From: Escherichia coli
GTDB taxonomy: Bacteria > Pseudomonadota > Gammaproteobacteria > Enterobacterales > Enterobacteriaceae
NCBI RefSeq assembly: GCF_024502345.1
Contig: NZ_JALDNN010000001.1
Direction: 5' to 3' (one strand)
Length of the DNA stretch: 64,000 nt
Below the pieces are notes generated by a model. It was not told the origin of the DNA. It saw nothing but the letters and a program-made list of their open reading frames with translations, and did no database searches. Positions 20,396 to 26,671 of the stretch are shown in pieces. Position 1 is the stretch's first letter. Every line of letters begins with the position of its first letter. Made by a program: the position numbers and the translations under genes.

Positions 20396-20400
20396 ACCAT

Positions 20401-20433
20401 ACGCACAGAATGTGATGTCAGCACTCTGTGCGT
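20401..20433. terminator. hairpin between convergent eamA and island regulator (acgcacaga / tctgtgcgt)
   Basis: 9-bp inverted repeat with 15-nt loop followed by ctgcttta. Confidence 0.35.
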
Positions 20434-20438
20434 CTGCT

Positions 20439-21137
20439 TTATCGCGGGAAAAAGTACTTTACCTGGAACTCGAAAATATTGCTGTAAAGTAACGAATAAT
20501 CCAGCGGAACAGAGTTACTGTCCACAGCCTGGGTCTGAATTTTAAGTATGGGATCCCGTGGGCTGATCCGTAAAATACTGGCGATTTCTGGGGTAGGAAA
20601 AGTAGGGGAGAAAGTTTCAAAGGTGCCAATGATTTTGATCCCGCATTCGTTCTCAATATACGAAAATTTGGATTTTTGCATATGTGCTACGGTTAAATCA
20701 GGAAAACGTGCCACTGACATCCACGTTTCTTCTAATTGTGCTGCATTATCCTCAATGAATCGCAGTCTCTTTATGTAATAAACCTGCTCACCAGTTACTA
20801 AATTCAGCTCAGTCGCAATAGTAGGTGAAGCATCCTGCACTTCAAATTTCATAATCTGACTCCCTGCCTCTTTGCCGCTTTTATGCGCAATTTCACTGAA
20901 ACTGTTCATGTGATCAATGTGTGCAACAAAATTCTTTTTTTGAATGTATGTTCCTGAACCATGCTTTCTGTGAATAATTCCTTCGCCTTCCAGCAAGGAT
21001 AATGCCTTACGCAGGGTATTACGCGAAACATTATAACGAACTGCGAGTTCAGCTTCTGATGGCAACAAATCACCAACATGCCATGAATAGCCATTGATCT
21101 CGGATTTAAGTAAGCGGGCAATCTTTTGAAAAATCAC
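20439..21137 (-). CDS. GntR/HutC-family transcriptional regulator (winged HTH + UTRA effector domain)
   Basis: 232-aa ORF; N-terminal ...LPSEAELAVRYNVSRNTLRKALSLLEGEGIIHRKHGSGTYI GntR signature; divergent from PTS operon. Confidence 0.8.
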   Translation of the reverse strand: MIFQKIARLLKSEINGYSWHVGDLLPSEAELAVRYNVSRNTLRKALSLLEGEGIIHRKHGSGTYIQKKNFVAHIDHMNSFSEIAHKSGKEAGSQIMKFEVQDASPTIATELNLVTGEQVYYIKRLRFIEDNAAQLEETWMSVARFPDLTVAHMQKSKFSYIENECGIKIIGTFETFSPTFPTPEIASILRISPRDPILKIQTQAVDSNSVPLDYSLLYSNIFEFQVKYFFPR

Positions 21138-21335
21138 TTTTGCACCTTTTAAGAGCCATTGAAAACAAGGGGTTGAGTCCTGATTGGTTTATCGTATGGC
21201 CGAGTCGTTTAATTAACACCCTGATGTTGAACAACTTTATTACTGTATTACTGTGATCAATGTACCAGGATGTATAGCTACTGCGGGATATGATATTTAC
21301 ACAATGTAGTCTGTTATATACCAGTAAGGGAAAAT

Positions 21336-21647
21336 ATGAAAAAGATATTGTTAGTTTGCGCTGCGGGCATGTCAACCAGTATGCTGGTTAAACGTATGAT
21401 TGATCATGCTAACGCTATTTCACTTGAAGTTAATATTTCCGCATTGGCGATTGCAGAGGCTAAAGGGAAAATTAAAAATAACGAAGTTGATGTTGTTTTA
21501 CTTGGCCCGCAAGTTCGCTTTCAGAAACCGGAGATTGAAGCCGTTGCACAGGGGAAAATGCCTGTATCCGTTATCGAGATGAAAGACTATGGCACCATGA
21601 ACGGACAGGCAGTTCTTGAATTTGCGATGAAACTACTGCAAGAGTAA
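21336..21647 (+). CDS. PTS lactose/cellobiose-family EIIB component
   Basis: 103-aa ORF MKKILLVCAAGMSTSMLVKRM... with phospho-Cys motif CAAGMSTS. Confidence 0.85.
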   Translation: MKKILLVCAAGMSTSMLVKRMIDHANAISLEVNISALAIAEAKGKIKNNEVDVVLLGPQVRFQKPEIEAVAQGKMPVSVIEMKDYGTMNGQAVLEFAMKLLQE

Positions 21648-21760
21648 GAATCTAATATTATTAAACTATTACCTGAACTAACTTTTCACACATCATAAAA
21701 TGGATATGGCATACATGCTTTATTGGGATGTATAAATATCCAGAACAGCAGGTATAAAAA

Positions 21761-23083: not shown

Positions 23084-23104
23084 TCCCATTTACACAGAAA
23101 GGAG

Positions 23105-23422
23105 ATGTTGATGTTTGCAGATGAAGAACTTGTTATGGAGTTACTGGTCAACGCGGGACAGGCTCGTTCTGATGCGATGGAAGCCATACGTTGTGCCGGG
23201 AAAAAAGACTGGCAGGGCGCAACTCAGCTAATGGCCAGTTCTGAATCTGCCTGTCTTCAGGCACATAAGATTCAGACCGCGTTAATTAGTCAGGATGAAG
23301 GCTGTGGCAAAATAAAAGTTAATTTAATTCTGGTACATGCACAGGATCATTTGATGAATGCGATGTTATGCCAGGATTTAGCCAGGGAAATTATTTCATT
23401 AAGAAAAGAACTCCATGCCTGA
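23105..23422 (+). CDS. PTS lactose/cellobiose-family EIIA component
   Basis: 105-aa ORF with ...LVHAQDHLM... region resembling ChbA; start codon (23105 vs 23111) uncertain. Confidence 0.8.
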   Translation: MLMFADEELVMELLVNAGQARSDAMEAIRCAGKKDWQGATQLMASSESACLQAHKIQTALISQDEGCGKIKVNLILVHAQDHLMNAMLCQDLAREIISLRKELHA

Positions 23423-23477
23423 ATTTTTCCTCCAGTGCGTTAGCTGGAGGAAACTATTACACTCTTAAGGATATGTC

Positions 23478-25151
23478 ATGAATATAAAGACGCTTAACGT
23501 CAGCCTTTTGTCTTTTTCTATTCTTACGGCATTGTTTCCGTTGAACGCGATGGCAACAAAATTAACCATAGAGCAGCGCCTTGAATTGCTTGAAAATGAA
23601 TTGTCGAAAAATAAACAAGAGCTGAAAGCAACACAGAATGAACTGGGAGTATATAAATCCAGACTTTCGACCTTACAAAAAAGTATTACGGAAAACAAAT
23701 ATAAATCAGCCTCGCTTGCTGAAATATCAGCGACATCTCCCGTCGCTGACAACATCAAAAATGAAAACGGTGAACAGAACTCGTCTGCCGCAGCGCATAC
23801 TATAAATGGATCGCAGCAAGTTGCTGTTATTGAAAGTAAAGGCGACAAAACCACTATCGAAAGCGTGACCCTGAAAGATATCAGTAAATATATAAAAGAT
23901 GATATTGGGTTCAGCTATCAGGGGTACTTTCGCTCAGGTTGGGGTACCGGTAATCACGGCTCACCACAAACTTATGCAGCGGGTTCTCTGGGACGTTTTG
24001 GTAACGAGATGAGTGGTTGGTTTGACCTGACCTTAAATCAGCGTGTCTATAATCAGGACGGTAAAACGGCAAATGCGGTCGTTACCTATGATGGCAACGT
24101 GGGTGAGCAGTATAACGATGCCTGGTTTGGTGACAGTGCCAATGAAAATATCATGCAGTTCAGTGATATTTATCTGACAACGCGAGGTTTTTTACCCTTC
24201 GCGCCAGAGGCAGACTTCTGGGTCGGCAAACATAAACTCCCGCAATATGAGATCCAGATGCTGGACTGGAAAACCTTAACCACGGATGTCGCCGCGGGTG
24301 TGGGGATTGAAAACTGGGCGCTTGGTGTAGGGCTGTTTGATATGTCCTTAAGCCGTGATGATGTCGATGTTTACTCTCGTGATTTTACGCGTACCAGCCA
24401 GATGAATACCAATTCTGTGGATGTTCGTTATCGCAATATCCCGTTATGGGATGATGCGACATTATCATTAATGGCTAAATATTCCGCACCTAATAAAACG
24501 GATCAACAACAAGATAATGAAAATGACGACAGCTATTTTGAAATGAAAGATAGCTGGATGCTGACTTCTATTTTACGGCAAAACCTGCAACGCGATACGT
24601 TTAATGAATTTACGTTACAGGTTGCCAATAATTCCTATGCCAGCAGTTTTGCCAGCTTCTCAGATGCCAGTAACACGATGGCGCACGGTCGCTATTACTA
24701 TGGTGACCATACCAATGGGATCGCCTGGCGTTTAATCTCTCAGGGCGAGATGTATCTCACTGACAATATTATTATGGCTAACGCGCTTGTCTATTCTCAC
24801 GGCGAAGATGTTTATAGTTATGAAAGTGGCGCTCATAGTGATTTTGACAGTATTCGCACCGTAATAAGACCGGCCTGGATCTGGAATACATGGAATCAGA
24901 CGGGGCTTGAATTAGGCTGGTTTAAGCAACAGAACAAAACACAGCAGGGTGTAACACTAAATGAATCGGCTTATAAAACGACACTCTGGCATGCATTGAA
25001 AGTGGGTGAAAGTATTTTAGGTTCACGACCAGAAATTCGCTTCTACGGGACGTATATCAATATTCTGGATAACGAATTATCGAATTTTAAGTTTAATGAG
25101 AACAGCAAAGACGAGTTTATGGCCGGCATCCAGGCGGAAGTCTGGTGGTAA
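23478..25151 (+). CDS. LamB/BglH-family carbohydrate porin with N-terminal coiled-coil extension (ScrY-like)
   Basis: 557-aa ORF: signal peptide, heptad-rich segment ([32 protein letters not shown]), aromatic-rich barrel region, C-terminal ...AEVWW like LamB ...EIWW. Confidence 0.7.
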
Positions 25152-25175
25152 TCTATTTTAGTTAAGGAGTTGTGT

Positions 25176-26615
25176 ATGTCAGGATTTAAAAAAGGTTTTT
25201 TATGGGGCGGTGCGGTAGCCGCGCATCAGTTGGAAGGTGGCTGGAATGAAGGAGGAAAAGGCATCAGTATCGCTGATGTGATGACTGCTGGCGCTCACGG
25301 GGTGCCGCGTAAAGTGACAGAAGGCATTATCGACGGGCTTAATTATCCCAATCATGAAGCAATTGATTTTTATCATCGCTATAAAACAGATATTCAGTTA
25401 TTTGCCGAGATGGGATTCAAATGCTTTCGAACTTCCATTGCCTGGACACGAATCTTTCCGCAAGGTGACGAACAGGAGCCGAATGAAGAGGGTTTACAAT
25501 TTTATGATGATCTGTTCGATGAGTGCCTGAAGCAGGGAATGGAACCTGTGGTGACGCTTTCGCATTTTGAAATGCCTTATCATCTGGTGACAAAATATGG
25601 TGGCTGGCGAAACCGTAAACTGATCGACTTTTTTATCCGCTTCGCATCAACGGTCTTCACGCGCTATAAAGAAAAAGTAAAGTACTGGATGACGTTTAAC
25701 GAAATCAATAATCAGGTGAATTTCAGCGAAAGCCTATGTCCATTTACTAATTCCGGTATCTTGTATACGCCAGAGGAAGATATCAATGAGCGCGAACAAA
25801 TAATGTACCAGGCGGTACATTACGAGTTAGTTGCCAGTGCCCTGGCGGTACAGACTGGAAAATCGATCAATCCTGAATTTAATATCGGCTGTATGATCGC
25901 CATGTGCCCCATCTATCCTCTGACGTGTGCACCCAACGATATGATGATGGCCACGAAAGCGATGCATCGTCGTTACTGGTTTACTGATGTTCATGCTCGT
26001 GGATATTATCCGCAACATATGCTGAATTACTTTGCCAGGAAAGGATTCAACCTCGATATCACATCAGAAGATAAAGCGATTCTTGCCAGAGGTTGTGTCG
26101 ACTTTATCGGTTTTAGCTACTACATGTCTTTTACGACACAATTTTCGCCCGATAACCCGCAACTGGATTATGTTGAACCACGAGATTTGGTCAGCAACCC
26201 TTATATTGATACATCCGAATGGGGATGGCAAATTGATCCGGCAGGGCTACGTTATTCACTCAACTGGTTCTGGGATCATTTCCAGTTGCCGCTGTTTATT
26301 GTCGAAAATGGATTTGGTGCAGTTGACCAGAGACAAGCTGACGGCACGGTAAACGATCACTATCGCATTGATTACTTTGCTTCCCATATTCGGGAAATGA
26401 AAAAAGCCGTAGTCGAAGATGGTGTTGACTTAATTGGCTACACCCCGTGGGGCTGCATTGACCTGGTTTCTGCTGGAACAGGGGAAATGAAAAAGCGCTA
26501 CGGAATGATTTATGTCGATAAAGACAACGAAGGGAAGGGAACGCTGGAACGGATACGTAAAGCGTCGTTTTACTGGTATCGGGATCTCATCGCCAACAAT
26601 GGCGAAAATATTTGA
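25176..26615 (+). CDS. 6-phospho-beta-glucosidase (glycoside hydrolase family 1)
   Basis: ORF 25170..26615; ATG 25176 six nt after aaggag; [16 protein letters not shown]-terminus and TFNEIN / ENG catalytic Glu motifs. Confidence 0.85.
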
Positions 26616-26671
26616 GACTTCAGGAAGATATTACGGAGATGTCAGGCTCTGTGATCAGAGCCTGACAATAA

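Follow-up and report, generated by a model that had tools for sequence, protein, structure and literature searches.

What is the segment of about 6.3 kb that lies between eamA and marB in this strain of Escherichia coli, and how old is it there? The window analysed here is the whole 64,000-nucleotide stretch of contig NZ_JALDNN010000001.1. In it, six genes are located between two core genes, eamA (19496-20395, + strand), which encodes an O-acetylserine/cysteine exporter, and marB (26672-26890, - strand). A sequence-only reading of the window described these genes as an accessory beta-glucoside phosphotransferase system (PTS) island with an unassigned substrate. We conclude that the six genes are very probably the E. 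coli bgc locus for the uptake of beta-glucosides and cellobiose, composed of the regulator gene bgcR and the operon bgcE-bgcF-bgcI-bgcH-bgcA.

The bgcR gene (20439-21137, - strand) encodes a GntR/HutC regulator of 232 residues and is divergent from the operon, from which it is separated by a regulatory region of 198 bp (21138-21335). The other five genes are on the + strand. BgcE (gene at 21336-21647; 103 residues), BgcF (21761-23083; 440 residues), and BgcI (23111-23422; 103 residues) are EIIB, the EIIC permease, and EIIA of the lactose/cellobiose family, respectively. They are followed by BgcH (23478-25151; 557 residues), a carbohydrate porin of the LamB family, and BgcA (25176-26615; 479 residues), a 6-phospho-beta-glucosidase of glycoside hydrolase family 1 (GH1). 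The open reading frames (ORFs), NCBIfam, and Pfam confirm the number of genes, the families, and the strands that had been read from the sequence. The starts of bgcI and bgcA are those that RefSeq annotates in strain GF3-3, whose island is 99.9% identical to that of the window, at the same coordinates (agreement checked over ~18100-29850). All six ORFs have the length of the annotated orthologues (GF3-3 and other island strains, RefSeq), so the locus appears intact in this strain.

The architecture of the locus is that of bgc. According to a citing paper, bgc is a five-gene operon that includes the PTS subunits BgcE, BgcF, and BgcI and the phospho-beta-glucosidase BgcA, and BgcR is a GntR-type positive regulator of the operon (PMC3585215). 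It is one of four beta-glucoside operons of E. coli, together with chb, asc, and bgl (PMC4488073). In the window, a divergent gene for a GntR-type regulator is located beside a five-gene operon that encodes, in order, IIB, IIC, IIA, a porin, and a phospho-beta-glucosidase. The bgc locus was described and functionally characterised by Neelakanta, Sankar, and Schnetz in 2009 (Appl Environ Microbiol 75:2284). The abstract of that work is said to name the porin BgcH as the product of the fifth gene and to give the order E-F-I-H-A as IIB-IIC-IIA-porin-glucosidase. The sequence-only reading implied novelty and named, as a finding that would overturn it, the identity of its EIIC/GH1 pair with a characterised E. 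coli operon. In effect this is the case, because the locus itself matches the characterised bgc.

The distribution of the locus points in the same direction. The uropathogenic strains UTI89, clone D i14, and IAI39 carry the island, and MG1655 does not. CFT073 has a six-gene cluster annotated as 'PTS system, cellobiose specific' (c1955-c1960), which is listed as shared with UTI89 and with a number of diarrhoeagenic and commensal strains and as missing from K-12 and O157:H7 (PMC2831201). E. albertii carries the island at the same junction, the six-gene module is found in Citrobacter and Salmonella, and porin orthologues are found in Enterobacter as well. The title of the 2009 paper presents bgc as prevalent in septicemic and uropathogenic strains. 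Its abstract is said to describe bgc as prevalent in phylogroup B2 and rare in commensals, to report it from E. albertii, and to mention homologues from Klebsiella, Enterobacter, Citrobacter, and Gram-positive bacteria. In addition, a DNA search for the porin gene in 5426 complete E. coli genomes retrieves this one locus (95-100%) and otherwise bglH (~66%), indicating that there is no second porin-bearing beta-glucoside locus besides bgl.

The PTS proteins can be assigned to the lactose/cellobiose family with the following NCBIfam models. BgcE matches TIGR00853 at 1.6e-24, with 66.7 bits, which is below the ChbB equivalog cut-off of 157, and has an LVCAAGMSTS motif with the putative phospho-cysteine. 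BgcF scores 332.8 bits with TIGR00410, over the cut-off of 236, and 276 with the ChbC equivalog, below the cut-off of 760; it also matches the cellobiose-specific IIC in PDB 3qnq at 3.6e-56. BgcI matches the EIIA-LAC (TIGR00823) and ChbA models under their cut-offs (108 versus 148 for ChbA) and has a HAQDH motif. The three proteins thus form the set that marks the PTS lactose/cellobiose family (TC 4.A.3): a separate EIIB with an active-site cysteine, an EIIC, and an EIIA.

BgcA scores 1035 bits with the NCBIfam model NF007154, over the cut-off of 624. The motif NEINN at residue 175 contains the acid/base residue Glu176, the motif VENGFG at residue 376 contains the nucleophile Glu377, and a Ser/Lys/Tyr phosphate-binding motif is located at residue 432. 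The catalytic and phosphate-binding motifs of a GH1 6-phospho-beta-glucosidase are therefore intact in BgcA. The protein is 69.7% identical to the chain in PDB 3pn8, a Streptococcus mutans enzyme, and matches E. coli BglA (2xhy) with 682 bits.

BgcH is composed of a signal peptide, a coiled-coil-like periplasmic N-terminal extension of ~120 residues, and a LamB-type barrel. Pfam places LamB at residues 147-557 (1.3e-81) and Sugarporin_N at residues 30-56 (1.1e-6), and the score with the NCBIfam maltoporin subfamily model (205) is below the cut-off of 394. A phmmer search of the PDB sequences with BgcH gives no match even at E = 10, so the placement in the LamB family comes from the profile methods (Pfam and NCBIfam) only. 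The protein identity with E. coli BglH is 52.5%, and the DNA identity is 66%, over the barrel. The porin and the GH1 enzyme sit in one 90%-identity protein cluster of 14022 members, which is probably chained by porin-GH1 fusion ORFs.

BgcR gives GntR/HutC-type matches in NCBIfam, none of them over an equivalog cut-off. Its orthologues have the Pfam domains GntR and UTRA, and BgcR is composed of an N-terminal helix-turn-helix and a UTRA effector domain. No match to the PADLOC defence models is found for any of the six proteins.

Judging from these families, the module is a complete set of outer-membrane channel, PTS uptake system, and phospho-beta-glucosidase with its own regulator, which supports the sequence-only reading on this point. 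The LamB/ScrY-like porin BgcH would let beta-glucosides pass the outer membrane, after which the PTS would take them up and phosphorylate them at O6. The phosphoryl group would pass from phosphoenolpyruvate through EI, HPr, and BgcI to BgcE, and from BgcE to the sugar bound in BgcF. BgcA would split the resulting 6-phospho-beta-glucoside into glucose-6-phosphate and glucose or an aglycone.

The regulatory region at 21138-21335 is conserved across E. coli, C. koseri, and S. enterica subsp. salamae, and partly in Kluyvera. Its best-conserved block is a candidate CRP site, TGTGATCAATGTACCA, at 21252-21267 on the + strand. The block (TGTGAyCAATGTAmCA) is kept in the Citrobacter and Salmonella modules, and a TATGAT hexamer resembling a -10 element is positioned ~30 nt downstream. 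Conservation, rather than the bare pattern, makes it a candidate CRP-like site, whose function is predicted. The 2009 abstract is said to report that transcription of bgc needs CRP and cyclic AMP, that expression of the operon on the sugars tested is weak ('cryptic'), and that activating (promoter-up) mutations map to the promoter. In generic scans for promoters and terminators, the island gives matches at background level only. The gap of 113 nt between bgcE and bgcF has no significant or conserved structure by folding and alignment (z = -0.95).

Which sugars does the locus serve? PMC3585215 reports growth with bgc on cellobiose, arbutin, and salicin, so the description of the substrate as unassigned does not hold. 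The alternative that survives best is compatible with the identification as bgc: cellobiose and aryl-beta-glucosides could be mere side substrates, and the natural substrate another beta-linked disaccharide such as gentiobiose, sophorose, laminaribiose, or a mannan/glucomannan fragment. We consider this rather unlikely. The weak expression on the tested sugars that the 2009 abstract is said to report would fit such an alternative, as would the enzyme of the 3pn8 family, the closest solved one, which was reportedly crystallised with several 6-phospho-beta-glucosides. BgcR is also similar to the regulators GmuR and BguR of glucomannan/cellobiose systems (PMC3585215). The growth reported on the three sugars nevertheless argues against a different natural substrate.

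Several points weigh against the identification as bgc and against what we derive from it. The identification draws on architecture, distribution, the uniqueness of the locus, and the reported content of the 2009 abstract, and not on a sequence alignment. The name Bgc appears in none of the exact-sequence and cluster records examined for the proteins of the window and of UTI89. The citing paper leaves out the porin and swaps the labels of IIA and IIC (PMC3585215). Regulators of the HutC family are usually repressors, and the activator role of BgcR is taken from the literature only. The block at 21252-21267 has two mismatches to the CRP pattern, which yields 25 matches versus 27.8 expected by chance.

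The first two of these points would also be expected if the segment were a different lactose/cellobiose-family PTS island that merely resembles bgc and has a truly unassigned substrate. We regard this as very improbable. The GntR regulator and the separate IIB, IIC, and IIA of the published bgc exclude bgl, asc, and chb, and E. coli genomes have only one such porin-bearing locus besides bgl. Moreover, the distribution in uropathogenic strains fits the title of the 2009 paper, and the island in E. albertii fits the occurrence there that the paper is said to report. The segment is therefore best read as bgc, a locus that is already known and common in the species and that has little weight as a discovery. 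It looks unassigned because the records examined lack the Bgc names and RefSeq labels the genes generically only (GF3-3 and other island strains). With such labels, annotation-based scans will keep finding bgc anew as an unassigned PTS island.

We now turn to the history of the junction. In MG1655 (K-12), eamA and marB are adjacent and convergent, as the sequence-only reading had stated, and are separated by a 30-bp hairpin spacer. A scan of outgroups with EamA as the query and one genome per species gave 80 loci with 10-kb flanks. In almost all Enterobacteriaceae scanned (~70 outgroup species, among them members of Citrobacter, Enterobacter, Kosakonia, Leclercia, Lelliottia, and Trabulsiella), the two genes are adjacent with a short spacer that forms a GCCCCG...CGGGGC hairpin. 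The K-12 spacer and those of three other island-less Escherichia species share this hairpin. The empty site is ancestral, because the outgroup spacers carry the same hairpin as K-12. By the same outgroup comparison, the C-terminus of EamA in the window (...KVRG*) is the ancestral form.

The left edge of the island is located directly after the eamA stop codon, with no target duplication. An inverted repeat at 20403-20432, between the convergent eamA and bgcR, forms the left-end hairpin, with folding energies of -19.4 kcal/mol on the + strand and -25.0 kcal/mol on the - strand (z = -2.8 and -5.0). This hairpin, probably a bidirectional terminator, is part of the inserted DNA. The right-end hairpin, GTCAGGCTCTG-TGAT-CAGAGCCTGAC, is located at 26641-26666 between the convergent bgcA and marB, and folds with -23.3 and -22.3 kcal/mol (z = -4.1 and -4.6). 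The ~12 nt preceding marB (26660-26671) resemble the ancestral spacer when compared with empty-site spacers. Thus 26660-26671 looks like a remnant of the ancestral spacer, and the inserted DNA would comprise ~20396-26659. The insertion appears to have occurred once and to have replaced most of the hairpin spacer between the convergent eamA and marB. Both ends of the inserted DNA carry hairpins that came with it.

The segment lacks the marks of a mobile genomic island (integrase or transposase, tRNA or att site, flanking repeats). The ORF list and the RefSeq annotation of GF3-3 show no integrase or transposase ORF in the island, no tRNA is found anywhere in the 64-kb window, and no direct or inverted repeat of at least 14 nt pairs the two island boundaries. 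These searches bear out the earlier statement that no integrase, tRNA, or flanking repeat marks the boundaries. With no mobility gene and no target duplication, illegitimate recombination is likely for the insertion between eamA and marB.

The insertion seems to be old. In E. albertii, the island occupies this junction too and is bounded by the same two hairpins (locus L090); the eamA gene of L090 is 99.3% identical to that of the E. albertii type strain. The type-strain contig itself (L009) shows homology to the island over the first 61 nt beyond eamA, including the left hairpin. E. coli and E. albertii share 79.7-83.3% identity in the genes of the island and 82.2-89.9% in the core genes on either side. 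When E. coli phylogroups are compared with one another, identity is 97.2-98.0% for the island and 96.4-98.2% for the flanks. The divergence of the island matches that of the flanking core genes, indicating that the insertion is old and not a recent import. We infer that it dates from about the time when E. coli and E. albertii diverged.

Outside this junction, orthologous porins with 80-84% identity are found in Citrobacter, Enterobacter, and Salmonella. The same six-gene module is located at unrelated sites in C. koseri and in S. enterica subsp. salamae, in the latter between cysE and a SpoU methylase gene. The homology of these two modules stops at the outer stop codons, and they share no terminal sequences. 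The module evidently moves as a unit without mobility functions of its own, presumably by illegitimate or flank-mediated recombination. In Kluyvera georgiana, a variant of the module (L086, 6266-11531) encodes a GntR regulator, IIB, IIC, and a porin that shares 76% identity with BgcH. Genes for IIA and the GH1 enzyme are missing from this variant, and a gene for a HAD/S6PP-type hydrolase comes next.

Within E. coli, 80% or more of the island is present in 2493 of the 5426 complete genomes (~46%), almost always in one copy, on the chromosome. A further 2484 genomes (~46%) have a contiguous K-12-type empty junction, and partial copies of the island are present in ~70. In 378 of the 5426 genomes, a 401-nt probe of the K-12 eamA-marB junction has no match on either side. 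The accessory nature of the segment and its absence from K-12 are thus confirmed by MG1655 and by the 2484 empty-site genomes, and K-12-type genomes carry the hairpin spacer at this junction in place of the six genes. A search for plasmid-borne copies gave two high-identity matches that are mislabelled chromosomes of 4.8-4.9 Mb. The other two high-identity plasmid records (385 kb and 42 kb), both from the assembly of a single urine isolate, are probably chromosomal fragments, and the remaining matches in the plasmid collection are bglH-like porins.

Could the island have been acquired recently and be spreading horizontally among E. coli lineages? Its G+C content is 42.7%, versus 48.0% for the whole window, and its distribution is patchy across phylogroups: O104:H21 carries it and K-12 does not, although their flanks are 98.7-99.3% identical. 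The presence of the same module at other sites in other genera would fit as well. However, island and flanking core genes show equal divergence, within E. coli as well as relative to E. albertii, and the junctions of the island are identical in the two species. Mobility genes, tRNA, and repeats are lacking, and the high-identity plasmid matches reduce to mislabelled chromosomes or, probably, chromosomal fragments. Recent acquisition is therefore highly unlikely. The word 'island' in the sequence-only reading stands insofar as the DNA is accessory and missing from K-12, but a segment that occurs in ~46% of genomes and has diverged like its core neighbours is better called an old resident.

The converse, that the K-12-type junction is a deletion derivative of an island-bearing ancestor, is the least credible alternative: imprecise deletions do occur (L001 and L007), and the K-12 spacer and the right end of the island share short similarities (GAGATGTC; GCC-GA-CAA-CTACAT), but the K-12 hairpin is that of Citrobacter, Enterobacter, Leclercia, Lelliottia, and the three island-less Escherichia species, loss of the island would not rebuild it, each of the 2484 empty sites aligns without a break to the K-12 spacer, and the idea of this spacer as a deletion scar was dropped in view of the ~70 outgroup junctions with the same hairpin.

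Imprecise deletions are seen in three genomes. In Escherichia sp. MOD1-EC7003 (L007, 10001-10970), codon ~291 of eamA runs in frame into the final 33 nt of bgcA, so that EamA ends in a new C-terminus, and the right-end hairpin of the island follows. This scar indicates that the species of MOD1-EC7003 once had the island and then lost it. In E. coli 2017.17.01CC (L001), the sequence passes from the middle of eamA directly into the final 139 nt of the island. In E. albertii L090 (SRR21391058, 8001-10037), an internal deletion of ~1.1 kb fuses the porin and GH1 genes into an ORF of 678 residues, so the operon is probably inactive there. Porin-GH1 fusion proteins of 630-749 residues also occur among the E. 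coli matches (P0076, P0077, and P0117).

Taken as an old insertion, the locus appears to persist as a presence/absence polymorphism, with island and empty site each in ~46% of genomes and with occasional imprecise deletions. The shared insertion site, the core-like divergence, the empty spacer in about half of E. coli and in three other Escherichia species, and the scar in MOD1-EC7003 imply either that haplotypes are maintained or that they are repeatedly replaced. In the first case, both haplotypes would be kept over the long term, which may reflect balancing or niche-dependent selection, for example cold or plant-associated versus gut environments. In the second case, one haplotype would repeatedly replace the other through homologous recombination in the flanks. 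We tentatively suggest, while doubting it more than we believe it, that the junction is a very old and possibly trans-species presence/absence polymorphism. Mismatches binned along the flanks between K-12 and island strains gave no clear pattern of recombination tracts at the junction. To our knowledge, the persistence of the two haplotypes is the only part of this analysis that goes beyond published work on bgc. At a frequency of ~50% in E. coli, bgc is a convenient natural case of how metabolic accessory modules persist or vanish.

Other DNA is found at the same junction in other species. C. amalonaticus (L017, 10898-16998) has an Rhs core element between eamA and marB, apparently split into two ORFs, and C. 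sedlakii (L044, 10901-16041) has genes for an autotransporter of 1379 residues and a LuxR-type regulator. Three further species (L013, L052, and L080) have inserts of 0.6-0.8 kb. The spacer between the convergent terminators of eamA and marB seems to be a recurrent insertion site. A contig labelled as a Caldithrix sp. metagenome-assembled genome (SMXE01000224.1; L004) contains ydeE-eamA-marBAR-marC with 97-100% protein identity to the window and a junction identical to that of K-12 over the ~150 nt compared. This contig is almost certainly E. coli contamination in that assembly.

Elsewhere in the window, the only Rfam match is the Hfq-binding RNA STnc560 (17685-17898, + strand; 281.9 bits), which follows closely after dgcZ and runs antisense to both mgtT and mgtS. 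According to the GF3-3 annotation (coordinates matched over ~18100-29850), the window would begin, at positions 1-9628, inside lambdoid prophage tail genes (gpJ, lom-like, tail fibre, and tfaQ). They would adjoin a 5'-truncated ydfJ, into which the prophage appears to be inserted. In the corresponding neighbourhood of other strains, IAI39 (L088, 2223-3687) has ftrA and a rhodanese-like gene between mgtS and ydeE, and UTI89 (L087, 1925-2133 and 15617-15718) has mere remnants of ydeJ, ydeI, and yneK.

How does the locus compare with known systems? The porin is most readily compared with ScrY and LamB. BgcH likewise has a LamB barrel, together with the periplasmic N-terminal extension typical of ScrY-type porins, and its sequence is too distant from every solved porin for a single-sequence match. 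The operon as a whole resembles the Gram-positive bgu (S. pneumoniae) and gmu (B. subtilis) systems, which also combine a lactose/cellobiose PTS, a GH1 enzyme, and a GntR/HutC regulator, and whose GH1 enzymes are represented by PDB 3pn8/4f66 and 3qom. In contrast to bgc, these operons have no porin, as their hosts are Gram-positive. The Bgc and Bgu proteins are highly similar according to PMC3585215. BguR and GmuR act as repressors, but BgcR is described there as an activator.

Among the E. coli systems, chb (chbBCARFG) belongs to the same PTS family, also has separate IIB, IIC, and IIA, and supplies some of the NCBIfam models that match here. Its regulator is of the AraC type and its hydrolase belongs to GH4, and it includes a deacetylase gene but no porin gene. 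The six genes are not chb, as the PTS proteins score well under the Chb cut-offs and the locus has a GntR regulator, a GH1 enzyme, and no deacetylase. The bgl operon (bglGFBH) is likewise an AT-rich, cryptic beta-glucoside PTS operon with a LamB-family porin of its own and a GH1 phospho-beta-glucosidase, and BglH is the closest E. coli relative of BgcH. It encodes a single glucose-family EIIBCA (BglF) and the antiterminator BglG, and is located elsewhere on the chromosome. Since neither a BglG antiterminator nor a fused EIIBCA is encoded between eamA and marB, bgl is ruled out.

The closest counterpart is bgc itself, which agrees with the locus in species, architecture, and occurrence in uropathogenic strains and E. 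albertii, and from which no difference was detected in the window. The allele in the window has diverged by ~2-3% from those of UTI89, IAI39, and O104:H21. The prevalence found here (46%, including strains of phylogroups B1 and F) is broader than the 'rare in commensals' that the 2009 abstract is said to give for bgc.

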